A DNA stretch of 64,000 bases, taken from assembly GCA_016930695.1 (NCBI GenBank), contig JAFGGD010000059.1:14286-78285 (forward strand), in the 5' to 3' direction. Below the pieces are notes generated by a model that was not told the origin of the DNA, did no database searches, and was given only the letters and a program-made list of their open reading frames with translations. The DNA is from Candidatus Eiseniibacteriota bacterium. Lineage in GTDB: Bacteria; Orphanbacterota; Orphanbacteria; Orphanbacterales; Orphanbacteraceae. Positions 1-21,883 of this stretch are shown in pieces (the first letter of the stretch is position 1; each line of letters opens with the position of its first letter). The position numbers and the translations under genes are program-made.

Positions 1-222
1 CACGTACAGCATTTCGGGGTGGATCTTCATGGTGCCTTCGCCGGCGATCGCGTTCGCCACGGCCGAGTTCAGCACCTTGGTCACGATCCGGGCCCCGTTT
101 TTCTGCGTCGCCTGAAGGGTCCGTAGGGATTGCTCGACCCCCTGACCCCGGATCAGATCGACGACCAGACGGGCCTTGCGGGCCGGAATTCTGGTGTATC
201 GAGCCTGAGCCCTGGATTCCAT
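1..222 (-). CDS. rplV: 50S ribosomal protein L22 (5' part; runs off the window edge)
   Basis: Manual translation from ATG at 222: MESRAQARYTRIPARKARLVVDLIRG...VLNSAVANA, a typical L22; follows rpsS. Not in the ORF track. Confidence 0.95.
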   Translation of the reverse strand, partial: MESRAQARYTRIPARKARLVVDLIRGQGVEQSLRTLQATQKNGARIVTKVLNSAVANAIAGEGTMKIHPEMLYV

Positions 223-256
223 TTCCCTTCGTCCTCTCTATACACCGGGGAAACGA

Positions 257-538
257 CTAGCGCTTCTTCCCCTTCTCTTTTCTGCCGCTGTGCCCGCGGA
301 AGGTCCGCGTGGGCGCGAACTCGCCGAGCTTGTGGCCGACCATGTTCTCGGTGACATACACGGGGATGAACTTGTTCCCGTTGTGCACCGCCACGGTGTG
401 GCCGACGAACTCGGGCGAAATGGTGGACCGCCGCGACCAGGTCTTGAGCACCTGGCGATCGCCGCCGCGGTTCATCTTCTCGATCTTCTTCACCAAATGA
501 TCGTCGATGAAGGGACCTTTTTTCAGCGAACGAGGCAT
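257..538 (-). CDS. rpsS: 30S ribosomal protein S19
   Basis: [12 protein letters not shown]...WSRRSTI...[12 protein letters not shown]. Confidence 0.99.
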
Positions 539-559
539 ATCGTCCTCCGCGCGGCGCCG

Positions 560-1450
560 CTACTTCTTCCGCCGCCTGATGATCAACTCGTCCGACTTCT
601 TGCGCTTCTTCCGGGTCTTGTACCCCTTGGTCGGAACGCCCCAGGGGGTGACCGGATGGCGGCCGCCGGAGGTTCGGCCCTCGCCGCCGCCGTGGGGGTG
701 GTCGATCGGGTTCATCGCCACGCCGCGCACCTTGGGACGGCGGCCGAGCCAGCGGGACCGGCCCGCCTTGCCGCTCTTCTGGTTCTCATGGTCCAGGTTC
801 CCCACCTGGCCGAGGGTGGCGCGGCATTCGAGCCTGACCTTGCGGATCTCGCCGGAGGGGAGACGCAGCACCGCGTGATCCCCTTCCTTGGCCATGAGCT
901 GGGCGAAAGAGCCGGCGCTCCTCGCGATCCGACCGCCCTGCCCCGGCCGCAGCTCGATGTTGTGGATCTGGCTGCCGAGCGGGATGTCGCGGATCGCCAT
1001 CGCGTTTCCGTCGTGGATCTCGCTCTGCGACCCATCCTCGACCGGATCGCCCACATTCACGCCGTGGGGCGCGAGGATGTAACGCCGCTCCCCGTCCGCG
1101 TACAGCACCAGGGCGATGCGGGACGACCGGTTCGGATCGTACTCGATCGCCTCGACGCGCCCCGGCACCCCGCCTTTGTCCCGGCGGAAATCAATCTTGC
1201 GATAACGCCGCTTGTGGCCGCCGCCGCGACGCCGGCAGGTGATCCTGCCGTTGCTGTTCCGGCCGCCCGAACTCTTGAGAGGCTCCAGAAGCCCCTTCTC
1301 CGGTTTCTTCCTGGCGTTGGACGACTTTTTCCGTTTTCCCTTCGTCTCGGCCGCCTTCTCCGGATCGTTCTTCTTGGTCAGCTCCGAGAAATCGGAAATC
1401 GCCTTGAAACGGAGTGTCGACGTCGTCGGCCTGAACTTCCGAATCCCCAT
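560..1450 (-). CDS. rplB: 50S ribosomal protein L2
   Basis: [35 protein letters not shown] motifs; extra ~20-aa basic N-terminal insert. Confidence 0.99.
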
Positions 1451-1503
1451 GATTCCGTTCCTTCCTTACCCGTTGATCGCCGGCGTCCCGCGGACCGCCG
1501 CCG

Positions 1504-1797
1504 TTATACCTGCTCGAAGATCGGGATGCTCTCGCCCGCCTTCAAGGTCACCGCCGCCCGCTTCCGGTCCGGCGTTTTCCCTACGTACTTGCCCTGTCTG
1601 CGGTTCTTGCCCCGGGCGAACCAAGTGTGCACATCCACCACCTGCACCTTGAACACGGCCTCCACCGCTTTCTTGATCTGGATCTTGTTCGCCCGCGGAT
1701 TCACTTCGAACACGTACTTGTTCTCCGCTTCACGCATGTTCGACGATTTCTCGGTCACGATGGGCCGAACGATGATCCGTCGATGGCTCAGATTCAT
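1504..1797 (-). CDS. rplW: 50S ribosomal protein L23
   Basis: RPIVTEKS...YVFEV...[18 protein letters not shown]...KRAAVTL. Confidence 0.98.
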
Positions 1798-1800
1798 GGC

Positions 1801-2436
1801 CTACTCCGTTTCCTCGGTCGTTTCGAACGTCTTGAGCGCCTCGGCGGTGAAAACGATCCGCCCCACGTTCAGAGCGTCGTACGTGTTCAGGCCGTACACG
1901 GTGGACACGAACAACCGGGGGTGATTCCGAACCGAAAGGAAAAGGTTCTCGTCAAAACGATCAACCACCAGGAGGCACTTCTCGCCGTTTTTGGCGACGC
2001 GCTTCCACAGCTCGGCGAAAGTTTTCGTCTTGGGCGACTCCAGCGTCGGGAGCTCCTCGATGATGGTGATCGCCCCGCGGCCCGCCTTGTCGGAGAGCAC
2101 CGAGCGGAGGGCGAGGCGCCGCACCTTCTTCGGGACACGGATGGAGTGATCCCGCGGCGAGGGGCCGTGAATCCGGCCGCCGCCCACCCAGAGGGGAGAG
2201 GTCCGCGTGCCCGAGCGGGCGCGCCCGGTCCCCTTCTGGCGCCAGGGTTTGGTCCCCGAGCCCTGCACTTCGTGCCGGGTTTTCGTCGACGAAGTGCCCT
2301 GCCGCTGGTTCGCGAGCAGATACTTCACGGTTTCATAGACGGCTTGGCGATTCGGCTTCACCCCGAAGGTATCCGCCGGAAGGGCCACGGTCCCCTTCTC
2401 CTTGCCGTCGAACGTCTGAACAGCCGCTTCAGCCAT
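1801..2436 (-). CDS. rplD: 50S ribosomal protein L4
   Basis: [30 protein letters not shown]...GGGRIHGP. Start placed at ATG 2436 (GAGG 9 nt upstream); ATG 2445 is an alternative. Confidence 0.98.
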
Positions 2437-2447
2437 GGCTTGCATCC

Positions 2448-2756
<309 letters not shown>

Positions 2757-2854
2757 GCTCGTCTCCTTCGCGGCGATGATTTCCACCGCGCCTATCGGTC
2801 GTCGATAAGGCGCCTTCCCCGTCGGGCGCGCCTCGTTGCTCCCGGTTCGTTCTC

Positions 2855-4936
2855 TCAGAACCCCCGCATCCGGGAGATCATCGCCTCCGCGATTCGCGAG
2901 GGGACCTCCTCGTAACGGAGGAACTGCATCGTATGGCTCGCCCGGCCCTGGGTGAGCGAACGGAGCGCCGTCGCGTATCCGAACATCTCCACCAGGGGCA
3001 CGTGGGCGTCGATCACCTTGGCGTCCGCCCGCTGGTCGGTGCCGTTGATTTGGCCGCGCCGGCCGTTCAGGTCGCCGATCACCGCTCCGGTGTAATCCTC
3101 CGGAACGACGATCTCGACGGCCATCACCGGCTCCAGCAGGACCGGGTCCGCCTTCCGCACCGCGTCGTGAAGCGCCATCGAGGCGGCGGTGCTGAAGGCG
3201 GGCTCGGTGGAATCGGTGTCGTGATAGGAACCACCCGTCAGAACCACCCGGAGGCCGGTCAACTCGTAGCCGGCCAACGCGCCGCTCCCCATGGCGCCCC
3301 GAAGGCCGCTCTCGACCGCGGCGATGAACTCCTTCGGAATCGACTCGGGCGGCGTCTGGTTCTCGAAACGGAACACCTCTCCGTCCTCCGCCGGCGCGAT
3401 CTCGATGATCACGTGCGCGTACTGCCCGCGGCCGGCGGCCTGCCGGACGAACTTGGTTTCCGACCGAGCCGTCCCACGAATCGTCTCGCGGTACGCCACC
3501 TGCGGCTTTCCCACGTTCGCTCCGACGCCGAACTCACGAGCCATCCGGGTGGTGATGATGTCGAGGTGGAGTTCACCCATCCCGGAGATGATCGTTTGGC
3601 CCGTCTCTTCATCCACGGCGTACCGGAAGGTGGGGTCCTCCTCGGCCATGCGGGAGAGGGAATCGTTCAGCTTTTCCTCGTCCGCCCGCGTTTTCGGCTC
3701 GATGGCGACGCTGATCACCGGCTCCGGGAAGGTCATCGACTCGAGCACCACCGGCTTGTCGATCCGACAGATCGTGTCGCCGGTGAACACGTGCTTCATG
3801 CCCACCGCCGCGGCGATGTCGCCGGAGTAGACCTCCTGGACCTCCTCCCGCTTGTTGGCGTGCATGAGGAGGATCCGGCCGATCCGTTCCTTGCGGCCGG
3901 TGCGGGCGTTCACGATCTGGTCGCCGCTCTTCATCACGCCCGAATAGGCGCGGAAGTAGGTCAGCTTTCCCACGTAGGAGTCGGCCCGGACCTTGAACGC
4001 CAGCGCGCAGAATGGTTCCTTGTCGTCCGCGTGGCGCTCCACCGTCTTTTCCGTCCGCGGGTCGATCCCCTTCATCGGCGGCACGTCGAGCGGGCTGGGG
4101 AGATATTCCACCACCGCGTCGAGGAGCCTCTGCACCCCCCGGTTCTTCAGCGCCGAGCCGCACAAGACCGGGTAGACGCGCCCGGAGAGAGTTCCCGCCC
4201 GGATCGCTCGGCGCAGGTCCGCTTCGGACGGCGACTTCCCCTCGACGTACTGCTCGAGGGTCTTCTCGTCGAACTCGGCGAACGCGTCGATCATCTCGGC
4301 GCGGGCTGTCTCCGCCTCCGGCAGAAGCGCCACGGGGATCTCCTCCTCGTGGTATTCCTTGCCGAAAGTCTTGTCGTCGTTGATGACCATCTTCATCCGC
4401 ACCAGATCGACCAGACCGGTGAAACTCTCGCCGGCCCCGACCGGGATCTGAATCGGCACCGCATTGGCGCCCAGTTTTTCGCGCATCATGCGGACCGCGC
4501 GGCCGAAATCGGCGCCGACGCGGTCCATCTTGTTGACGAAGGCCAGCCGCGGAATCCGGTACCGATCGGCCTGTCGCCAGACCGTCTCGGACTGGGGTTC
4601 CACGCCCCCTACGGAACAGAAAACGCCGATCGCGCCGTCCAAGACCCGCAGGGACCGTTCGACTTCGACGGTGAAGTCGACGTGGCCTGGAGTGTCGATA
4701 ATGTTGATCCTGCTATCGTTCCAAAAGCAGGTTGTCGCGGCCGAGGTGATGGTGATCCCGCGCTCTCGCTCCAGATCCATCCAGTCCATCGTGGCTGTGC
4801 CGTCGTGGACTTCTCCCAACCGGTGAACACGACCGGTGTAGTAAAGCATCCGCTCCGTGACCGTGGTCTTCCCCGCGTCGATGTGCGCCATAATTCCGAT
4901 GTTGCGCGTTCTCTCGAGCGGAAACTGCCGACCCAT
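2855..4936 (-). CDS. fusA: Elongation factor G
   Basis: [32 protein letters not shown] motifs; start trimmed to ATG 4936. Confidence 0.99.
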
Positions 4937-5108
4937 CGCGGCCCTCACTACCACCCCTCGCCTGGCGGTATCGGGTTTGCACCCGACCTTCCGGGCTGCA
5001 CATGCGCGGAATCAGACACGCAACGTCGCGTGTCGACTCAAAAGGCGGAGGAGTGATGAAAGGTCTGTTCAATCGCAAATCGTTACCCCCGCTTCGCGGG
5101 GTCTCGGG

Positions 5109-5579
5109 CTACCAACGATAATGGGCGAAGGCCTTATTGGCTTCCGCCATCCGATGCGTGTCCTCGCGCTTCTTGATGGTCGACCCTTCCTTCTTGGAGG
5201 CGGCGAGCAATTCCCCCGCGAGCTTTTCCCGCATGGAGTGCTCGGAACGCCCCGCGGCGAAGCCGATCAACCAACGAATGGCGAGCGACGTCCTGCGCTC
5301 ATGACGAACTTCAACCGGCACCTGATAGGTGGCGCCGCCGACCCGCCGGGACTTCACCTCGAGAATCGGCTTGGCATTGGCCACGGCCGCCTTGAACACG
5401 GCCAGGCCGGGCTGCCCCGTCTTGTTCTCGATGCTGTCCAGAGCGCCGTACAGGATGCTTTCCGCCGTGCTCCGCTTCCCGCCCCCCATCAACGAATTGA
5501 TGAACTTGGTGACGAGAACGCTGCCGTGCACCGGATCGGGCATCGTTTCGTTTTTCTTGGCGTACTTCTTTCTCGGCAT
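5109..5579 (-). CDS. rpsG: 30S ribosomal protein S7
   Basis: MPRKK...[12 protein letters not shown]...[15 protein letters not shown]; real start at 5579, ORF track overextends it. Confidence 0.99.
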
Positions 5580-5580
5580 C

Positions 5581-5955
5581 TTACTTCTTCGGTCTTCTCG
5601 TTCCGTACTTGGAACGGCTCTGAGTGCGACCATCGACGCCGGAAGCGTCGAGCGCGCCCCGGATGATATGGTAACGGACACCGGGCAGGTCCTTCACTCG
5701 TCCGCCGCGAACCAGCACGAGAGAGTGCTCCTGCAAATTGTGCCCCTCACCGGGAATATAACTGGTCACCTCGATCCCGTTCGTCAGCCGAACGCGGGCC
5801 ACCTTCCGTAGCGCCGAGTTCGGCTTCTTCGGGGAGGTGGTATACACGCGCGTGCAAACGCCCCGCTTCTGCGGACACGCCTGCAGGGCCGGCGCCTTGG
5901 TTTTGTTCTTCGCCACCTTTCGGCCCTTTCGGACCAACTGACTGATCGTCGGCAA
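5581..5955 (-). CDS. rpsL: 30S ribosomal protein S12
   Basis: [12 protein letters not shown]...[10 protein letters not shown]...[12 protein letters not shown]. Confidence 0.99.
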
Positions 5956-6024
5956 CGCTCACGACCTCCCGGGCTGAAACCCGTTCCAAATTAAGGGCAT
6001 AGACGAAATAGTCTGAAGCAAGCC

Positions 6025-10203
<4,179 letters not shown>

Positions 10204-10227
10204 TGGAGACGGTGTACCGCATTCGAT

Positions 10228-13200
10228 TTACTCGGGCTTCTCCTGCTGGAGATGCACGTCGAGACCCAACGACTGGAGTTCCTTGACTAATACATTGAAG
10301 GACTCCGGAATCCCCGGCTGGGGCGGATTGTCCCCCTTGACGATCGCTTCATACACCTTGGAACGCCCGACCACGTCGTCGGACTTGACGGTGAGCAACT
10401 CTTGGAGCGTGTAAGCGGCTCCGTATGCTTCGAGGGCCCACACCTCCATCTCGCCGAACCGCTGACCGCCGAATTGGGCTTTCCCTCCGAGCGGCTGTTG
10501 GGTAACGAGCGAGTAGGGTCCGATGGACCGGGCGTGGATCTTGTCGTCCACCAGGTGGGAAAGTTTGAGCATGTAAATATATCCCACCGTCACCTTCTGC
10601 TTGAAGGGGTCGCCGGTCCGGCCGTCATACACCATCGTCTTCCCGCTGTCGGGAAGACCGGCCTCTCGGAGCTTCTCCTTGATCTCTTCTATGGTCGCGC
10701 CGTCGAAAACCGGCGACTCGGCCTTCACGCCGAGCAGCTTGCACGCCCAGCCGAGATGGGTCTCCAGAATCTGACCCAGGTTCATTCGGGAAGGGACGCC
10801 GAGCGGATTCAGCACGATTTCGACGGGCGAGCCGTCGGCGAGGTAGGGCATGTCCTCTTCGGGGAGGATCTTCGCCACCACGCCCTTGTTGCCGTGGCGT
10901 CCGGCCATCTTGTCGCCGACGGATATCTTCCGCTTCTTCGCCACGTAGACCTTCACGAGCTTGACCACGCCGGGCGCGAGTTCGTCTCCCCGCGCCAGCC
11001 TTTCCAGCTCTCGGGCCAGTTCGCGTTCCTTCTTGTCGATCGCCGCGTCGGCGGCGGTCAGGAACGCGCGCACCCGGTTGTTGATCCGCATGTCGTCGGT
11101 GAAAGGCTCGTCGGCGTCCACTTTATCGAAACCGATCTCCTCAAAGAGACGGTCGTTCCATTTCCTGCCCGCGCGGATGTGTTCATCGTTCCCGCGGTAG
11201 TAGAAGCGTGCGGTGGTCTTTTCCAGGAGCACCTCGCGGACGCGCTCGTCGCGCACGTCCCGGATCCCCCGGATTTCCTTGTTGATCTGGCGCTTGATCT
11301 CCGCGACCTTCTTCTTCTCCTCCGCCTTGGCCCGCTCGTCGCGCTCCTTGCGGGAGAACACCTTCACGTCGATCACGATCCCGTCCATCCCCGGAGGCGC
11401 CTTGAGGGAGGCGTCACGAACATCTCCCGCCTTCTCTCCGAAGATCGCCCGGAGCAGGCGCTCCTCGGGCGAAAGCTCCGTCTCTCCCTTCGGGGTTACC
11501 TTGCCGACCAGAATATCGCCGGCCCGGACATGGGCGCCGACCCGAACGATGCCGTCCTCGTCCAGGTTGCGGACCGCCTCCTCGCTCACGTTCGGAATCT
11601 CGCGCGTGATCTCCTCGACGCCCCGCTTGGTGTCCCGCACCTGCAGCTCGAACTCCTCGATGTGTATCGAGGTGAAGCGGTCTTCCTTGACCAGCTTCTC
11701 GCTGAGAAGGATGGCGTCCTCGTAGTTGTAGCCGTGCCAGGGCATGAAGGCGCAGAGCACGTTGGTGCCGAGGGCGAGCTCGCCCCCCCGCGTGCCCGGG
11801 CCGTCGGCGATCACATCTCCCTTGTTCACCTTGTCGCCCGGCTGGACCTGCGGTTTCTGGTTGATGCAGGTGTCTTGGTTGGAGCGGCGGAACTTACGCA
11901 GCTTGTGGATCTCCAAACCCTCGAAACCGGTGAAGTCGATCTCGCGCCCCTTGGAGTAGTTGATCACCACCGTGTCCGCCGAAACGCTCTCCACGGTGCC
12001 GCCGTGCTTGGCGGTGACCAGCACGCCGGAGTCCATCGCCACCCGCTCCTCCAGGCCGGTGCCGACCAGCGGCACCTCCGGACGGAGCAGCGGCACGGAC
12101 TGGCGCTGCATGTTCGATCCCATCAGCGCCCGGTTGGCGTCGTCGTGCTCTAAGAAGGGGATGAGCGCCGCGGCGGCGCTGACGAGCTGCATCGGCGAGA
12201 CGTCCATATACTCGACGCGCTCGCGGTCCACCACCGGGTAGTCGCTCCGGAAACGGGCGGTCACCCGCTTCTCGTGGATCAATCCTCCCGTATCCAACGG
12301 CGTATTCGCCTGGATGATGATCCGCTCGTCTTCCTGGTCCGCCGAAAGGTATTCGATCTTGTCCGTGACTTTTCCGTTCACCACCTTGCGGTAGGGGGTC
12401 TCCAGGAAGCCGTACTCGTTCACCCGCGCGTAGGTGGAAAGCGAACTGATGAGGCCGATGTTCGGGCCTTCCGGCGTCTCGATCGGGCACATCCGCCCAT
12501 AGTGGGTGTAGTGGACGTCCCGAACCTCGAAGCCGGCCCGCTCCCGGGTGAGTCCCCCCGGCCCGAGGGCGGAGAGGCGGCGCTTGTGCGTCAGCTCGGC
12601 GAGCGGGTTGGTCTGGTCCATGAACTGGGAGAGCTGGCTGCTTCCGAAGAAGGTCTTGATCACCGCCGAGATGGTCCGCGCGTTGATCAGGTCGTAGGGG
12701 GCGATGTTCTCGGTGTCGCCGAGGCTCATCCGCTCCTTGATGATGCGGGCCATTCGCGAGAGGCCGATGGAAAACTGGATCGACAGCAGCTCGCCCACCG
12801 ACCGAAGCCGGCGGTTCCCCAAATGGTCGATGTCGTCGGTGAAGCCGTGCCCCGCCTTGAGCCGGAGCAGGTTGTCCACGATGGCGACGAAATCGTCCTT
12901 CGTGAGGATGGTCGTCTCGCTCGGCACGTCCAGGCCGAGGCGCCGGTTCATCTTATAGCGCCCCACCATGGCCAGATCGTACCGGCGGGGATTGAAGAAG
13001 AGGCGGTCCAGGAGCGCCCGCGCCGTATCCAGGCTCGGCGGGTCGCCGGGCCGGAGAAGGTTGTAGATGCGCTTGAGCGCCTCCTCTTCGCCGGAGCTGG
13101 TGTCCTTGATCAGCGTGTTGCGGATCACCTGCGAGTCGCGCTCCGTGTCCGAAACCAGAAGCCGTATCTTGCCCGTCTTGGCGTTTCGGAAACTCTCCAG

Positions 13201-14010
13201 GTGCTGAGGGCCGATCTCGTCGTTGGCGGAAGCGAGGACCTCGCCGGTCCCCCCTTTCTCGTCCACCACGTCGGAGGCGAGGATCCGGCCGACGAGTTCG
13301 TCCTTCTTGCGATAGGAGCTGAAGTTCAGCTCTTCGACGTCGTAGAACAGCTCGAGAATCGATTCGTTGCTCGAATAACCGAGGGAGCGGAGAAGAATTG
13401 TGACCGGCAGTTTCCGCTTCCGGTCGATGTGGGCATACATGATGTCGTTGATATCGGTGGTGAACTCGACCCAAGACCCGCGGTAGGGGATGATCCGGGC
13501 GGCGAAGAGGCGTTTCCCGTTCGGGTGGATCTCCTCGTCGAAAAACACGCCCGGAGAGCGGTGCAGCTGGCTGACGATCACCCGCTCGGCGCCGTTGATA
13601 ATGAAGGTTCCCTTGTCGGTGATGGTCGGGAGTTCGCCGAGGTACACCTCCTGCTCGATGACCTCTTTGACCTTCTTCTCGCCGTCCACCGTTTCCTTCA
13701 CGAGGAGACGGAGGGTGGCCTTCAGGGGCGCCGCGAAAGTGACGTCCCGCTCCTGACACTCGTCGACATCGTATTTCGGCTCGCCGAGGCTGTACGAAAC
13801 GAACTCGAGACTGAAGTTGCCCCTCGCGTCCGAGATCGGAAAGATCTCGTTGAACACCGACTGCAGGCCCTGATTCTTCCGCTTCTCCGGCGGAAGGCTC
13901 ATCTGCAGGAAGTGCTCGAACGACTGGAGCTGGACATCGAGGAGGTTCGGGATATCCATGATGGGGGGGATCTTGGAGAAGTTTAACCTCTCGATTGATT
14001 GCTTAGCCAA
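10228..14010 (-). CDS. rpoB: RNA polymerase beta subunit
   Basis: [38 protein letters not shown]; no intein seen. Confidence 0.99.
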
Positions 14011-14118
14011 TCTTCACTCTCCCCTTCTACGAATGGGACGGCCGTGCGCGGACCCGGCGAACCGCCGGGCCCGGCACGGTGTACGGCAGAGGAACGGGTA
14101 TGGAACGAAACAGGCGTC

Positions 14119-14538
14119 CTACTTCAGGTCCACCTGGCCACCCGCCTCCTCGATCTTCGCCTTGATATCCTCGGCCTCTTCCTTCGAAGCGGCTTCCTTG
14201 ATCGCCTTCGGCGCGTTGTCGACCAAATCCTTGGCTTCCTTCAGACCCAGGCCGGTGATCTGGCGCACCACTTTGATCACCTGAATCTTCTTGTCGCCGG
14301 TAGCGGTCAAAACAACGTCGAACTCGGTCTTCTCTTCCTCGGCGGCCGCTTCGCCGCCGCCCATGCCGCCCATGGGCATCGCCATCGCCTGGGGCGCCGC
14401 GGACACGCCGAACGTGTCTTCCAGCGCCTTCACCAGCTCAGCCGCCTCGAGAACGGTTAGCTTCTCGATCGCCTTAACGACTTCCGCAATCTTAGGCGAG
14501 ATCTCGACCGCTTCTTTGGTGGTCGCTTCCTCAGCCAT
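14119..14538 (-). CDS. rplL: 50S ribosomal protein L7/L12
   Basis: [10 protein letters not shown]...[23 protein letters not shown]. Confidence 0.99.
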
Positions 14539-14687
14539 TTCTTACCTCCAGCTTCTCGGGGCGGACCATCCGCCCGGTTCCGTTTCCGTGCTCGGCCGCC
14601 CGCACGGGGCGGGGTCGATTGATAGTTTCGATTCCCGCGGACGGCGGCGGCGCCGCCATGCCGGGGGTCGAACGACCGGGACCCGTG

Positions 14688-15218
14688 TTAGGACTTGCCC
14701 GCGGCCTCTTTCTGCTTCCGGATCTCGTCCACCGCGACCGCCAGATAGGTCATCACCGCGTGAATGGAACCCGCGATGCCCTGAATCGGGGACTGGATGA
14801 GACCCATAATCTGCGCCACCAGAACCGGCTTGCTGGGAAGATCCGCGATCTTCACCACCTCTTCCGGGGAAATGACGACGCCATCGATGAAACCGCCCTT
14901 GACCTTGGGCAGGGTGTGGGTCCTGGAGAACTCCTTGATGACCCTGGCGGGAGCGGTCGGATCCGCGCTCGTCACCGCCCACCCCGTGGGCCCCTCCAGG
15001 TAAGGCTCCAGCCCCGCCATGCCGCACTCTTTGGCGGCGATGAGGCCCAAGGTGTTTTTAACGACGATGAAATCCGCGTCGTTCTTGCGGAATTCCCGCC
15101 TGAGCTGACTGATCTTTCCCACGTCGAGACCGCTGAAATCGGCCAAGACGACCGCCTGGGCGTTCGCGAGCTTCGCCCGGAGGGTCTCGACGGCCTCAAC
15201 CTTGCGCGGTGTCGGCAT
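14688..15218 (-). CDS. rplJ: 50S ribosomal protein L10
   Basis: [10 protein letters not shown]...VVKNTL...LEGPT...LPS; start at 15218 with GGGAG SD; sits between rplA and rplL. Confidence 0.97.
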
Positions 15219-15238
15219 GTTGGACTCCCTCCCGCCTA

Positions 15239-15940
15239 TTACAGGCGCAGCAATTCGCCCTGGATGTCGAGCCGGATTCCCGGCCCCATCGTGGTCGATA
15301 ATGTGACGTTCTTCCAATACGTGCCCTTCGCGACGGACGGCTTGGCGCGCTGCAGCTCCCCGATCACGGTGCGGATGTTCTCCGCGAGCCGCTCCGCGGG
15401 GAACGAAGCCCGGCCGACGGGCACGTGGATGTTACCGGTCTTGTCGGTGCGGTATTGGATCCGCCCCGCCTTCACCTCGCGGACAGCCTTGCCCACGTCG
15501 AAGGTGACCGAACCGCTCTTCGGGTTCGGCATCAGGCCGCGGGGACCCAGAACCCGCCCCAGCTTACCGACATCCTTCATCATGTCCGGCGTGGCGATGA
15601 TCGCGTCGAAATCGATCCAGCCGCCCTGGATCTTCTCCACCATGTCGGTGGAGCCGACGAAATCGGCGCCCGCCTCCTGCGCCTCCTTCTCCTTCTCCCC
15701 CTTGGCGAAGACGAGCACTCGCACCGTCTTCCCCGTTCCGTGGGGGAGAGAGATCGTTCCGCGCATCTGCTGATCGGAGTGCCGCGGATCCACGCCGAGA
15801 CGAGCTGCCAGCTCGACCGTCTCGTCGAATTTGGACGTGGCGTTCTCCTTCAGCAGTTGGAGGGCGGCTTCCATGTCGTATCGCTTCAAACGATCGACTT
15901 TGTCCACCGCCGCTCTATACCGCTTACCTGTTTTTGCCAT
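15239..15940 (-). CDS. rplA: 50S ribosomal protein L1
   Basis: KFDETVE...[12 protein letters not shown]...[11 protein letters not shown]...STTMGPG. Confidence 0.99.
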
Positions 15941-15971
15941 AGGCACACCCCTGATCTCCCGCCTCGGAGCA

Positions 15972-16406
15972 TCAGTCGATCACTTCGATCCCCATGCTCC
16001 GGGCGGTGCCTTCGACCATGCGCATTGCCATTTCCACGTCGTTCGCGTTCAGATCCTCGGTTTTCATTTCCGCGATCTCGCGAACCTGCTTCCTCGTGAC
16101 CTTCCCCACCTTGTTCCGGTTCGGTTCACCGGACGCCTTGGCGAGACCGAGCGCCTTCTTCAGAAGCACGGCCGCCGGCGGCGACTTGGTGATAAAGGTG
16201 AAGGAACGATCGGCGTAGACCGTGATGACGACGGGAATGATCAGCCCGCGGTCCTTCTCGGTACGCGCATTGAACGCCTTGCAGAATTCCATGATGCTGA
16301 CGCCATGCTGGCCGAGCGCCGGCCCTACGGGCGGCGCGGGCGTCGCAATACCGGCCGGAATCTGCAATTTCACGAGCCCGATGATTCTTTTTTTCGGTGC
16401 AGCCAT
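15972..16406 (-). CDS. rplK: 50S ribosomal protein L11
   Basis: [23 protein letters not shown]...GTARSMG; real start at 16406. Confidence 0.99.
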
Positions 16407-16447
16407 GATTCTCTTCCCGATGAGCCGAAGGCGTGGCCTCCGGCGCC

Positions 16448-17197
16448 CTACAAGCTCTTCACCTGCAGGAAATCCAACTCCACGGGGGTCGCGCGGCCGA
16501 AGATGGTCACCATCACCTTCAGCTTGCCCCTCTCCGGATTGATCTCGTCCACCACACCGGTAAAATCGGTGAAGGGGCCGTCGCTCACCTTGACGTGCTC
16601 GCCCACGTGGAACGGCACGGTGGGCGTCGGCTTTTCCCGGGTCCCCTCGATGCGGCCCAGGATCAGATCGATCTCCTCGCCCGAGATCGGTTGCGGTTCG
16701 GCGCCGACGCCGACAAAACGGGTCACGCCCGGCGTGTTCATGACGACCCGCCACGTCTCGTCTTCCATTTCCATCTCGACGAGCACGTAACTGGGGAAGA
16801 ACTTCTTGTCGCTGATCGTCTTCTTGCCGTTCTTCATCTCCGCCACGCTCTCGGTCGGAACGAGAACCCGCTTCACCTTTTCTTTCAGGCCGGCTTGGGT
16901 GACGGCCCGTTCGATGTTCTTGGAGACCCGCTCTTCGTGGCCGGCATAGGTATGGACCACGAACCATTGAAAGCGGTCGTCCTTTTCCGGCTCCTTTTCG
17001 GCGGCCGGCTCTTCCGCCTGTTCGGTTTCGGCGGCGGTCTCCTCCGTCTGTTCCGGCTCCACGGCAGCCTCCTCCGCCTGCTCGGGCCGGGCGGACTCCG
17101 GCGTCTCGGCGGCGGCCTCGGCCGCCTCCGGCGGAGCTTCTACGGTCTCCCGGGGCTCCACGGCCCCTTCTTCCCGATCTTCTCTCACATCTTCCAT
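16448..17197 (-). CDS. nusG: Transcription termination/antitermination factor NusG with acidic N-terminal extension
   Basis: [22 protein letters not shown] domain DGPFTDFTG...FGRATPVEL. Confidence 0.98.
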
Positions 17198-17221
17198 GGT
17201 TTTACACCACAGGAGGGGGGA

Positions 17222-17425
17222 CTAATGAAAGACGACGCGCATGATTCGCGAGAGGCCGAAGTCCACCACACCGATAAAGATCGCGATGAGGATTACGGCG
17301 ATGACGACCACCACCGTCGAGCTTTTCAGCTCGTTCCAATTAGGCCAGGCCACCTTCTGCAGCTCGATCCACACTTCGCGGAGGAAGTGGATCAATCTCT
17401 GTAAGGTTCCGGGCTGTTCACTCAT
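17222..17425 (-). CDS. secE: Preprotein translocase subunit SecE
   Basis: FLREVWIELQKVAWP motif plus one TM helix; between tRNA-Trp and nusG. Confidence 0.97.
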   Translation of the reverse strand: MSEQPGTLQRLIHFLREVWIELQKVAWPNWNELKSSTVVVVIAVILIAIFIGVVDFGLSRIMRVVFH

Positions 17426-17458
17426 GATTCCTTCTCCGGCGGATTGTCAGAAGAGAAA

Positions 17459-17531
17459 CAGGTCAGGCAGGGATCGAACCCGCAACCCCCGGTTTTGGAG
17501 ACCGGTGCTCTACCAATTGAGCTACTGACCT
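17459..17531 (-). tRNA. tRNA-Trp(CCA)
   Basis: AGGTCAGTAGCTCAATTGGTAGAGCACCGGTCTCCAAAACCGG...GGTTCGATCCCTGCCTGACCTG folds as a cloverleaf. Confidence 0.97.
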
Positions 17532-17550
17532 ATGCTCTCCTCTAGAGCCA

Positions 17551-17581
17551 GAAAGCGGGGGACGCGCCTCGCGCGCCCCCC
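17551..17581 (-). terminator. Possible intrinsic terminator or processing hairpin after tuf
   Basis: GGGGGCGCGC-GAG-GCGCGTCCCCC hairpin followed by GCTTTC on the minus strand; weak U tract. Confidence 0.4.
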
Positions 17582-17600
17582 GAGCGTTTTACTGTTCGCC

Positions 17601-18806
17601 TTACTCGATGATCTCGGCGATCACGCCCGCGCCGACGGTGCGCCCGCCTTCGCGGATGGCGAAGCGGAGCGTCTTTTCCATGGCGATCGGCGTGTGCAGT
17701 TCCACCGAAATTTCCACGTTATCACCGGGCATCACCATTTCGCGCCCTTCGGGCAACTTGGCCGTTCCGGTCACGTCGGTGGTCCGGAAGAAGAACTGCG
17801 GCCGGTAGCCGTCGAAGAACGGCGTGTGGCGCCCGCCCTCTTCTTTTTTCAGAATGTAGACCTCGCCGCGGAATTTGGTGTGCGGCGTGACCGAATTGGG
17901 AGCGGCGATGACCATGCCCCGCTCCAACTCCGTCTTCTCCATGCCCCGCAGGAGGAGGCCGATGTTGTCGCCGGCCTGCGCGTCGTCCATCAGCTTCCGG
18001 AACATCTCCACGCCGGTGACCACCGTGTCGCGGGTCTCTTTGATGCCGACGCGCTGCACCTTGTCGCCCACCTTCACCTTGCCGCGCTCGACACGGCCCG
18101 TTCCGACGGTGCCCCGGCCGGTGATGCTGAACACATCCTCGACGGGCATCAGGAAGGGCTTGTCGACTTCACGCTGCGGCTCGGGGATAAAGGTGTCGAT
18201 CGCGTCCATCAGCTCCTGGATGCACTTGTTGGCCTCGGGATCCTCGGGGTTGTTCATGGCGTGAAGAGCCGCGCCGCGGATCACGGGGGTTTCGTCTCCC
18301 GGGAAGTCGTAGGCGCTCAGAAGCTCTCGGACCTCCAGCTCGACGAGATCGAGGAGCTCCGGATCGTCGACGGTGTCCACCTTGTTCAGGAAGACGACGA
18401 TATAGGGCACGTTCACCTGGCGGGCGAGAAGCACATGCTCGCGGGTCTGCGGCATCGGGCCGTCGGCGGCGTCCACCACCAGGATGGCGCCGTCCATCTG
18501 CGCCGCGCCGGTGACCATGTTTTTCACGTAGTCCGCGTGACCGGGACAGTCCACGTGGGCGTAGTGCCGGTTCGCGGTTTCGTACTCGACGTGCGATGTC
18601 GCGATGGTCAGAATCTTAGTCGCGTCACGCCGCCCCTGGGATTCCGACGCCTTGGCCACTTCGTCATAGCTGATCGCCGTGGCGAATCCCTTTTTGGACT
18701 GAACCATGGTGATCGCGGAAGTGAGGGTGGTTTTCCCATGGTCCACGTGGCCGATCGTCCCCACGTTAACGTGTGGCTTCGTCCTTTGGAACTTCTCCTT
18801 CGCCAT
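17601..18806 (-). CDS. tuf: Elongation factor Tu
   Basis: [36 protein letters not shown]; non-canonical switch-I loop. Confidence 0.99.
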
Positions 18807-18865
18807 CTCTACAGATCCTCCTGATTTCCGAATGGGCGGCGAGGCGTCTGGCCCGATGCTCGGGA

Positions 18866-18941
18866 TGGAGCCCACGACCCGATTTGAACGGGTGACCTAT
18901 TGCTTACCATGCAATTGCTCTACCGACTGAGCTACGTGGGC
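18866..18941 (-). tRNA. tRNA-Thr(GGT)
   Basis: GCCCACGTAGCTCAG...ATTGC-ATGGTAA-GCAAT...GTTCAAATC...GTGGGCTCCA. Confidence 0.96.
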
Positions 18942-19027
18942 CGATTCCCTCTTGCCGCGATCTTTAGTTGCGTCGGTTCCCTGTTTTTCGTTCCGTGACG
19001 GTTGACACCGTCGCTCGCTTCCGGTAT

Positions 19028-19104
19028 TGGAGCGGGAAACGGGATTCGAACCCGCGACCCTCAGCTTGGAAGGCTGATGCTCTAGCCAGCTGAGCTATTC
19101 CCGC
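19028..19104 (-). tRNA. tRNA-Gly(TCC)
   Basis: GCGGGAATAGCTCAG...CAGCCTTCCAAGCTG...GGTTCGAATCCCGTTTCCCGCTCCA. Confidence 0.97.
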
Positions 19105-19266
19105 GCGGTCGGGCGCGCGCCGGCATTTTCCGGCGCCGCACGGATTTATTTTACACCTCACGTGGAGGCGGAAGCTGCCCTTTCCGGTTCCTGCCCCACG
19201 CGGCTTTCCATCAAAAAGCCCGCCACGCGGGATGGGATGCCGGATCGATCGATCCTCGAATCGATA

Positions 19267-19348
19267 TGGGGAGGGGAGGATTCGAACCTCCGAAGGCATC
19301 GCCGACAGATTTACAGTCTGTTCCCTTTGGCCGCTCGGGAACCTCCCC
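19267..19348 (-). tRNA. tRNA-Tyr(GTA)
   Basis: GGGGAGGTTCCCGAGCGGCCAAAGGG...CAGACTGTAAATCTG, long variable arm, GGTTCGAATCC. Confidence 0.97.
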
Positions 19349-19415
19349 ATAGAAACCAAGATCTCGGACGCGTCGCGAAGACCAATGCCTATTCTTCGCG
19401 GCTCACTTTTTGGGG

Positions 19416-19488
19416 AGCTGGCGAGAGGACTTGAACCCCCAACCACCTCATTACAAGTGAGATGCTCTACCAGTTGAGCTACGCCAGC
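19416..19488 (-). tRNA. tRNA-Thr(TGT)
   Basis: GCTGGCGTAGCTCAACTGGTAGAGC...CTCACTTGTAATGAG...GGTTCAAGTCC...CGCCAGCT. Confidence 0.97.
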
Positions 19489-19530
19489 GGGTATCGCTCA
19501 CAGAGACGCGCTCGCAGAGACAGAAGCTAC

Positions 19531-19559
19531 AAAGTAGCACCGGCTTTGCACCCTGTCAA
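19531..19559 (-). promoter_or_regulatory. Sigma70-type promoter of the tRNA-tuf operon
   Basis: TTGACA (19559-19554), 17-nt spacer, TGC-TACTTT extended -10, about 40 nt upstream of tRNA-Thr. Confidence 0.7.
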
Positions 19560-19650
19560 CGGGTTTTACCGGAAGAGTGGATAAATCCTATTTCTTTTTT
19601 CAAGGACCCTCAAAGGTTTTTTTTCAAGGGATCGCGAAGATGCAAAGCGG

Positions 19651-19680
19651 TTGCGCCCGGGGCGGCCCGGGTGCTATGAT
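19651..19680 (+). promoter_or_regulatory. Possible sigma70 promoter for the divergent glycosyltransferase genes
   Basis: TTGCGC, 18-nt spacer, TGC-TATGAT. Confidence 0.45.
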
Positions 19681-19831
19681 CCAACTCGTTGCATTTTAGG
19701 CAATTAGCGGCCATCCCCGGGGCGGGACAAAGCCGATCCGTTCGAGGAAAATACATGTATTCTTTTTCATTGCAACGCGTTCCGGAGATCTCGCCTTGCG
19801 CGGCGCTTCGGTCGGGACCGAAAGGGGACCG

Positions 19832-21883
19832 ATGAAGAACCGCGTCTATCTCTTTCTCGCCTTGATCGCCCTCGTTCCAAGGGTGTTTTTTTTCATCGAA
19901 TCGGCCGGCGCCCCCCTCTCCCAATATCCTTACCTAGACGCCGCCTCCTACGACGAGTGGGCCCGAAAGGTGGCAGGCGGAGAATGTATCGGGGAGAGGG
20001 CGTTTCACATGGCGCCCCTCTACCCCTACCTTCTCGGCGCACTCTACCGGATCGCGGGGAGAAACCTTTCGGCGGTTCACGCCGCCCAGCACATCCTCGG
20101 AATCCTCAACTTGTTGCTTGTGTTTGCGATAGCGAATCGACTCTTCGGTCGGCGGACGGCATGGCTCGCCTTCCTCCTCGCCCTCGGATACGGTCCTCTC
20201 CTGTATTTCGAAGGGCAAATCCTCGCCTCCACTCTCGGCGTAACTTTTGGCTTGTTAAGCCTTTACCTTTTCATTCGCGCTTTCGGCGCGGGGGGGAAGG
20301 GGCTGTTTACGGCGGGACTCGTTCTCGGGATCGGCTCGGTCGCCCGCCCGAATCTGATCTTCTTCGTCCCTCTCGTACTCATCTGGGCGCTCTTTGGCGA
20401 AAGGGTGGGGCTCCGCCGCACCGCGGCCGCCTTGGCGGGCGTACTGATCGCCCTCATTCCGCCTGTCGCCCATAACTACTATGTGGAAAAGGACTTCATA
20501 CCCATCTCCAGCCACGGCGGGATCAGCTTCTATCTGGGGAACGGACCCTACACGCAGGGGACTTACGCCCCGCCGCCGGAGTTCGGCGGCAATCCGGAGG
20601 CGATCGACATCATCGATTCGAGGAGGCTCGCCGAGGAGGCGGCCGGGCGGCCGCTCAAGGCGTCGGAAATCTCTAACTACTGGTATGGAAAGAGCTTCGA
20701 GTTCATGCGGGAAAATCCCCTCCGCTACACCCGGCTTCTCCTGCGGAAAATCGCGCTTTACGTGAACGCCCACGAGATCCCCCTGGACGTCAATTACGAT
20801 TTCGACCGCCGCCTCTACAGGACGCTCCGTTGGTCCCCTTTCCCGATCGGCGTTCTCTTCCCCCTCGCTTTCCTGGGAGGGCTTCTCCTGATTCGCCGGG
20901 GCGGAAGGGGGAACCTCTTGGTTCTCTTCCTTCTGGCGAACGCCGCATCGGTCATCGCCTTCTTCATTTGCGCGCGCTACCGCCAGACCGCCATGCCGGC
21001 GGCGGCGATTCTGGCCGCCTTCGCGGTGATCCGCCTGTTCGAAACGGCGCGGGCCGGGCGCTGGCGAAGTCTGGCCGCGCTCGTCGCGCTCCTCCTCCTT
21101 TTCGGCGCCGTCGTTCATCTCGATCTTTACACGGGCCGACAAACGGGTGACGCCCGCTCCGCGGTCGTTCTGGGGCGGGCGTATGCTTCCGCGGGAGACG
21201 AAGGAGAGGCGGAGAAGGCTTTCCGGGAGGCGGTCCGTATCGTCCCCGGATACGCCGACGGCTGGATGAACCTCGGCCTTCTTCTCTACCGGGGGAAACG
21301 CTTCGATGAGGCCGCGGAGGCTTTCGGCGAGGCGACGCGCGCGGCGCCCGGTTTCGCCGGCGCGTGGAACAACCTGGGGAACGCCCTTCGCGAGGGAGGA
21401 GAGACGGAACGCGCCGCCTCGGCAATCGCCGAAGCGACCCGCCGCGACCCGGGTTACGCCGGCGCATGGAGCAACCTGGCGATCACTCTGGAGCGGCTTG
21501 GACGATATAAGGAAGCGGAGGCGGCCCACCGCCGCGCGATCGAGGCGGACCCTCGAACGCTGCACTGGCGGGCGAATCTGGCCGGGTTCCTCTTCGAGCG
21601 GGGACGCCTGGAGGAGGCGAAGACGGTTTCGGAAGACGCCGCCCGCGCCCTTCCGGACGATCCCGGCGCCGCGGTTCTGGCGGAGAAGGTCCGTTTCGCG
21701 GCCGAGCGTTACCTCCTTGCGCGGGAGAGGAGCGCGGCGGGAGACCGGGAGGGAGCGCTCCGGGCGCTCGCCGAGGCGGTGCGCGCCGGTGGGGAGGGGG
21801 CGCTCCGTCTCGCCGAGAGTGACCCCGCGTTCGCCCCGCTCCGCGAGGAGAGGGGAGACACCGGAGGAGGAGAGGGGCGATGA
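19832..21883 (+). CDS. Polytopic GT-C (ArnT/PMT, GT39-like) glycosyltransferase with C-terminal TPR repeats
   Basis: Many TM segments; first loop PYLDAASYDEWA...APLYPYLLG; TPRs such as AWNNLGNAL, AWSNLAITL; start at ATG 19832. Confidence 0.8.
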   Translation: MKNRVYLFLALIALVPRVFFFIESAGAPLSQYPYLDAASYDEWARKVAGGECIGERAFHMAPLYPYLLGALYRIAGRNLSAVHAAQHILGILNLLLVFAIANRLFGRRTAWLAFLLALGYGPLLYFEGQILASTLGVTFGLLSLYLFIRAFGAGGKGLFTAGLVLGIGSVARPNLIFFVPLVLIWALFGERVGLRRTAAALAGVLIALIPPVAHNYYVEKDFIPISSHGGISFYLGNGPYTQGTYAPPPEFGGNPEAIDIIDSRRLAEEAAGRPLKASEISNYWYGKSFEFMRENPLRYTRLLLRKIALYVNAHEIPLDVNYDFDRRLYRTLRWSPFPIGVLFPLAFLGGLLLIRRGGRGNLLVLFLLANAASVIAFFICARYRQTAMPAAAILAAFAVIRLFETARAGRWRSLAALVALLLLFGAVVHLDLYTGRQTGDARSAVVLGRAYASAGDEGEAEKAFREAVRIVPGYADGWMNLGLLLYRGKRFDEAAEAFGEATRAAPGFAGAWNNLGNALREGGETERAASAIAEATRRDPGYAGAWSNLAITLERLGRYKEAEAAHRRAIEADPRTLHWRANLAGFLFERGRLEEAKTVSEDAARALPDDPGAAVLAEKVRFAAERYLLARERSAAGDREGALRALAEAVRAGGEGALRLAESDPAFAPLREERGDTGGGEGR

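Follow-up and report, generated by a model that had tools for sequence, protein, structure and literature searches.

The canonical S10 operon, as in Escherichia coli, has the gene order rpsJ-rplC-rplD-rplW-rplB-rpsS-rplV-rpsC-rplP-rpmC-rpsQ, and in most bacteria the str operon is fused to its upstream end. Its second gene, rplC, encodes the ribosomal protein uL3, which is universal and essential and helps to shape the peptidyl-transferase centre. We know of no free-living bacterium that lacks uL3. In Cyanobacteria and plastids rpsJ closes the str operon (tufA-rpsJ), and rplC opens a separate cluster. This break implies that the link between rpsJ and rplC is not mechanistically obligatory. A literature search retrieved no description of S10 operons without the L3 gene. 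Here we describe such an operon in a stretch of 64,000 nucleotides from a bacterium filed as Candidatus Eiseniibacteriota (referred to as the window), and in its relatives.

Results

All genes discussed for the window are located on the minus strand, where a tRNA cluster, tuf, a tRNA, (secE), nusG, rplK, rplA, rplJ, rplL, rpoB, rpoC, rpsL, rpsG, fusA, rpsJ and rplD follow each other (the labels secE, rplJ, rpoB and rpoC are based on ORF size and position, without a Pfam match). The fusA gene for EF-G (2855..4954; Pfam GTP_EFTU, EFG_III, EFG_IV and EFG_C) is the last gene of the str operon, and rpsJ (uS10; Pfam Ribosomal_S10, 1.2e-39) comes next. The ORF listed for rpsJ spans 2448..2786 and starts from a GTG at 2786; judging from the sequence, the GTG at 2756, which is positioned 6 nt behind an AAGGAG and gives a protein of 102 aa as in the relatives, is more likely to be the true start. 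At the usual site of rplC, the rpsJ stop codon (TGA, 2450-2448) and the ATG of rplD at 2436 are separated by a spacer of 11 nt (2437..2447, GGATGCAAGCC). A GAGG at 2449-2446 that resembles a Shine-Dalgarno (SD) sequence overlaps the rpsJ stop and lies 9 nt ahead of the rplD ATG, and SD sites of similar kind are present at neighbouring genes of the operon. The start of rplD is conserved, since the N-terminus MAEA is common to the window, its close JGI relative L094, and the more distant relatives L002 and L003. Stop codon, start codon, their distance and the GAGG had all been reported in the initial annotation and were confirmed by reading the sequence, as was its description of the junction as well formed for translation. 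Because the junction is read directly from the sequence, chance is not an issue.

Downstream of the junction the gene order rplD-rplW-rplB-rpsS-rplV is kept. The rplD gene (uL4, 1801..2436) encodes 211 aa with a Pfam Ribosomal_L4 match of 1.3e-64 and is followed by rplW (uL23, 1504..1797; Ribosomal_L23, 2.6e-32), rplB (uL2, 560..1450; L2_N and L2_C), rpsS (uS19, 257..538; assigned from ORF and sequence, with S19 at the same position in relatives) and the 5' part of rplV (uL22, 1..222; assigned from the ORF and the gene order of relatives), which runs off the window. In the relatives the cluster goes on canonically to rplQ. Among the features of canonical gene order that we examined, a uL3 gene (PF00297) between rpsJ and rplD is missing, and all others are present. 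Apart from gene order, the uL2 of the window carries a Lys-rich insertion of 21 aa at residues about 27-47; it is unique to the window and absent in 9/9 aligned relatives, including the 80%-identical protein of L094.

Neither a sigma-70-like promoter nor an intrinsic terminator was found at the junction; the sole terminator-like match (1876-1859) lies inside rplD. The junction showed no unusual RNA fold (z = 0.37), and scanning positions 1-20000 of the window against Rfam at the gathering threshold revealed tRNAs only and no ribosomal-protein leader. As the junction has no such element and the genes have SD sites, rplD and the genes behind it most likely share a transcript with the str genes and rely on their own SD sites for translation, as far as the sequence can tell.

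The initial annotation had considered that about 630 nt including rplC might have been dropped during assembly, or that the rearrangement is real. Contig L001 of the Logan collection, which was produced by a different pipeline from the source run of the window (SRR13394437), also encodes its uL4 and is 100% identical to positions 702-2570 of the window, with the junction included. In a sludge metagenome, a contig of 199 nt with about 93% identity spans window positions 2396-2552; it was the one informative junction-spanning contig from the assembled reads of four runs, which are noisy, since contigs of many different organisms match conserved genes. The comparison of gene order in related genomes, as proposed in the initial annotation, revealed that rplD comes directly after rpsJ in five more species-level members of the same lineage. 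The identity to the Logan contig and the recurrence of the adjacency refute a loss during assembly and support a real rearrangement.

The closest relatives of the window are the JGI metagenome loci L094 and L095, with 75% identity in uL4 and 92% in S10. The methionine aminopeptidase (Map) encoded in their type of cluster occurs on 17 contigs, and in two of these that extend to the junction (L174 and L175, also from JGI metagenomes) the S10 gene adjoins the L4 gene. The same arrangement is present in OFTM309 (Candidatus Eisenbacteria bacterium, GCA_029262235.1, L002/L084), where it is located on a contig of 1.3 Mb and is also found in Logan contig L085, in SS_bin_27 (labelled 'Gemmatimonadetes bacterium', JABDJQ01, L003, uL4 accession NNE07736.1), and on two long NCBI contigs, JALGYY01 (GCA_025782575.1, L181, with a Logan copy L182) and JAJRWB01 (GCA_024276995.1, L183). 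NCBI labels for these organisms are inconsistent and read Eisenbacteria, Gemmatimonadetes or Latescibacterota. The uL4 proteins share 63-84% identity within the group and no more than 53% with any sequence outside it. In a collection of 5.8 billion proteins, 25 uL4 clusters showed 65-100% identity to the uL4 of the window, followed by a gap down to 53% or less. In an IQ-TREE phylogeny of concatenated S10, L4, L23 and L2, the window, L094, L002, L003, L181 and L183 fall into a single clade, supported by 100/100 and set off by a long stem of 0.38. It is placed in an unresolved radiation of FCB type (FCB: Fibrobacterota-Chlorobiota-Bacteroidota and allied phyla), together with two canonical Eisenbacteria-like families, Zixibacteria/Ignavibacteria, Gemmatimonadota and Fibrobacterota. 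In the neighbouring lineages every uL3 gene that was examined is located in a (tuf-)rpsJ-rplC-rplD context, with tuf ahead of rpsJ wherever the contig reaches that far. Locus L007 (DATKKS010000242.1) is filed as 'Candidatus Saccharimonadales'; its ribosomal proteins are those of JGI contig L099 and fall firmly with the main-line Eisenbacteria, so that the contig was probably binned or labelled wrongly.

We compared the spacers between rpsJ and rplD within the clade. Behind its TGA stop the window has the 11 nt given above, and the JGI relatives L094 and L174 have an equally long spacer behind a TAA (GGGAGCGAATC). The spacers of L002 (GGGATCGGGAGTAAAGAACG) and L003 (GGGATCGGGAGACAAGAACG) also follow a TAA and comprise 20 nt each, and that of L183 (GGATCGGGAGAGGATTACG) follows a TAG and has 19 nt. 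The common stop followed by a GG(G)A(G/T)C motif shows that the spacer is homologous in 5/6 members and provides the SD sequence for rplD. In L181 and its copy L182 a TAG is followed by 69 nt of unrelated sequence (L181 9932-10000), which hold a short GC-rich inverted repeat (CCGGGCCGGATCC) and then a run of T. This spacer is unlike all others, which indicates that the junction was remodelled at least once; by its sequence it could be the product of such remodelling or a small attenuator element. An ATG-CAA-GCC in the spacer of the window had been suggested to be a remnant of the rplC start. In the alignment it pairs with AGC-GAA-TC of the closest relative, there is no ATG in GGGAGCGAATC, and in the other members the bases at this place are unrelated. 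The spacer alignment hence does not support a remnant, and ATG-CAA-GCC is, judged by this alignment, a variant specific to the window.

The clade shows further differences in the gene content of the cluster. The str-operon copy of tuf is missing in the window, where the gap between fusA and rpsJ is 68 nt (2787-2854), and in L094; the only visible tuf is at a tRNA-tuf-tRNA-nusG site, in the window at 17601..18875 (Pfam GTP_EFTU, D2 and D3; flanked by tRNAs; the sole EF-Tu gene of the window). The order fusA-tuf-rpsJ is kept in OFTM309, JALGYY01 and JAJRWB01, and the str operon thus lost its tuf later, in a second step within the clade. Between rpsK and rpoA, rpsD is missing in OFTM309 (L084 15047-15500) and present in the JGI relative (L174 12018-12647), and adk is missing between secY and map in both. 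The content of the ribosomal protein cluster thus varies further within the clade. Just downstream of rplQ, L174 carries genes for JAB deubiquitinase-like, UBC-like (E2) and ThiF (E1-like) proteins (16189-19634), which may, from their domains, constitute a bacterial ubiquitin-like conjugation cassette.

In order to locate a uL3 gene, the 64-kb window was searched by tblastn with the E. coli L3 sequence as query, which gave no uL3 (best E 3.2). A profile HMM was built from 69 uL3 sequences of related loci and detected its positive control with 1e-82. Applied without filters to all stop-to-stop ORFs in the six frames of the window, it also revealed no uL3 (best E 0.85). Both searches confirm that no frame of the 64 kb contains an L3-like ORF, as had been noted from the sequence before. 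The HMM found no match in about 150 kb of the relatives' loci either, and downstream of the cluster no uL3 was present in the 3.8 kb beyond rplQ of OFTM309 (L084) or in the 6.5 kb beyond rplQ of the JGI relative L174.

The search was extended to protein collections, with two uL3 sequences of Eisenbacteria type (that of L005, and P0061) as queries. A uL3 of the clade was absent among the 120 closest relatives of each query. The genomic contexts of P0039, P0005, P0146, P0198, P0125, P0021 and P0022 were all (7/7) canonical, with the order (tuf-)rpsJ-rplC-rplD. A profile of the Eisenbacteria-type uL3 run against representatives at 50% identity, together with a uL3 tree and three clusters, yielded no candidate linked to the clade, and scanning viral contigs with the uL3 alignment gave no match. 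Taken over window, flanks and similarity searches, rplC was found in none of the six members of the clade, all of which are MAGs or metagenome contigs and none of which is closed. One of the queries deserves a remark: in P0061, from a 716-nt ENA contig, the first ~130 residues are those of P0121, and the C-terminal ~90 match the uL3 family of L005 (e.g., P0053), so that it looks like a chimeric assembly when its two parts are compared.

For calibration, identities were determined for five ribosomal proteins. Within one family they amounted to 66-72% for uL3 and 68-69% for uL4, and between families to 44-56% and 42-49%, respectively. Since uL3 diverges in step with uL4, the uL3 of the clade is expected to share only about 45-52% identity with each known family, a level at which it would not be recognisable by similarity among the phyla.

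One genome per species of GTDB was scanned with the uL4 of the window as query. This yielded 80 loci, 70 of which comprised S10 and L4, and L3 was located between them in 65/70. The five without L3 were L002 and L003 of the clade described here and L034, L047 and L048. L034 and L047 are related unclassified MAGs with 47% G+C, and L048 is a 'Deltaproteobacteria' MAG that NCBI assigns to Myxococcota. Among JGI loci that held both S10 and L4, 4/48 lacked L3: L094 and L095, and the more distant L106, which is unplaced, and L160, a relative of L048. In the L3-less loci outside the clade (L034, L047, L106, L048 and L160) the spacers have 7-45 nt. In the tree L034 with L047, and L048 with L160, are separated from the clade by well-supported branches; the topology requires three state changes, and 0/200 bootstrap trees permit a single one. 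The separate positions of these groups imply that the same loss recurred independently in at least two other lineages. The rarity of exceptions to the order rpsJ-rplC-rplD-rplW-rplB had been overstated, given 5/70 loci without L3 in GTDB and 4/48 in JGI.

Discussion

Our data make it very likely that rpsJ and rplD are genuinely adjacent, as a gene order passed on vertically in a deep uncultured FCB lineage with kinship to Candidatus Eisenbacteria, and that rplC was removed in the ancestor shared by its members. The homology of the spacers, the tree and the canonical neighbours together argue for a single departure of rplC from the operon, in the ancestor of the clade. In this event rplC would have been taken out precisely between rpsJ and rplD, leaving a short spacer in which the SD-like GGGAG/GAGGA just after the rpsJ stop would now serve rplD. 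Transcription and translation would then proceed from rpsL-rpsG-fusA-(tuf)-rpsJ directly into rplD and the remaining S10 and spc genes. Because uL3 is universally essential, we infer that rplC resides at another place in the genome and is expressed separately; it may have reached its new site by transposition within the genome, followed by loss of the original copy, or a second copy may have been acquired.

The last of these routes includes a foreign rplC that was gained at another locus and made the native operon copy dispensable, which was then deleted. The precise loss of an essential gene needs a prior second functional copy, for which horizontal acquisition is one source, and the lack of a clade uL3 among the 120 closest relatives of either query would fit. 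However, this lack is expected anyway, as a vertically inherited copy would share only about 45-52% identity with any known family, and the similarity searches produced no candidate for a foreign gene. We regard such a displacement, which is a special case of rplC being encoded elsewhere, as rather unlikely. A clade that truly does without canonical uL3, with a ribosome that dispenses with it or uses an unrecognisably divergent or non-homologous substitute, would also leave window, flanks and similarity searches empty. But these searches covered only about 64 kb of this genome and about 20 kb per relative, and the general knowledge that uL3 is universal and essential, with no free-living bacterium known to lack it, makes a true loss very improbable.

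Least credible, with next to no probability in our view, is an artefact of assembly or binning by which the contig lost about 630 nt with rplC. The window does stem from a short-read sediment metagenome, and tuf, a gene that bacterial genomes commonly have in duplicate, is a frequent break point of contigs in this region. Yet an independent assembly is identical across the junction, the adjacency recurs in five other species whose sequences come from separate studies and samples and were assembled with different programs, with a homologous spacer in four of these species, and an accidental deletion would have to be gene-exact and to leave a working SD sequence behind. A genuine gene order with rplC encoded elsewhere hence remains our preferred explanation.

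The gap between rpsJ and rplD provides a clean genomic synapomorphy that is easy to score and marks a deep, uncultured and inconsistently labelled lineage. With this clade, the Myxococcota-labelled group and the L034/L047 lineage, the rpsJ-rplC-rplD link was broken independently at least three times, which bears on the stability of the ribosomal protein supercluster and on the question whether uL3 synthesis can be uncoupled from that of the rest. Phylogenomic workflows built on 16 syntenic ribosomal proteins of a single contig will consistently fail to recover uL3 in L3-less lineages. Otherwise we are dealing with an ordinary variant of gene order, for which we propose no new mechanism and which has counterparts already visible in sequenced genomes of other phyla.

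Compared to the canonical S10 operon of E. coli type, the window is alike in having rpsJ first, in the order rplD-rplW-rplB-rpsS-rplV, in its tight spacing and in its SD sites, and, as in most bacteria, the str operon is fused to it upstream. It differs by the missing second gene rplC and is otherwise canonical. In contrast to the regulatory type of E. coli, neither the E. coli-type leader nor another ribosomal-protein leader of Rfam was detected at positions 1-20000 of the window, and the window and L094 further deviate from the canonical layout by the absence of tuf from the str operon. The closest precedent is the Myxococcota-labelled L048 with its JGI relative L160, in which rplC is likewise gene-exactly absent and the spacer is short. 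Nevertheless, this was a separate event, as both groups are on opposite sides of a branch with 100/98 support and the spacers of L048 and L160 are unrelated to those of the clade. In Cyanobacteria and plastids the link between rpsJ and rplC is broken as in the window, but there rplC stays with rplD-rplW-rplB, whereas in the clade of the window rplC alone was removed and rpsJ and rplD were joined.
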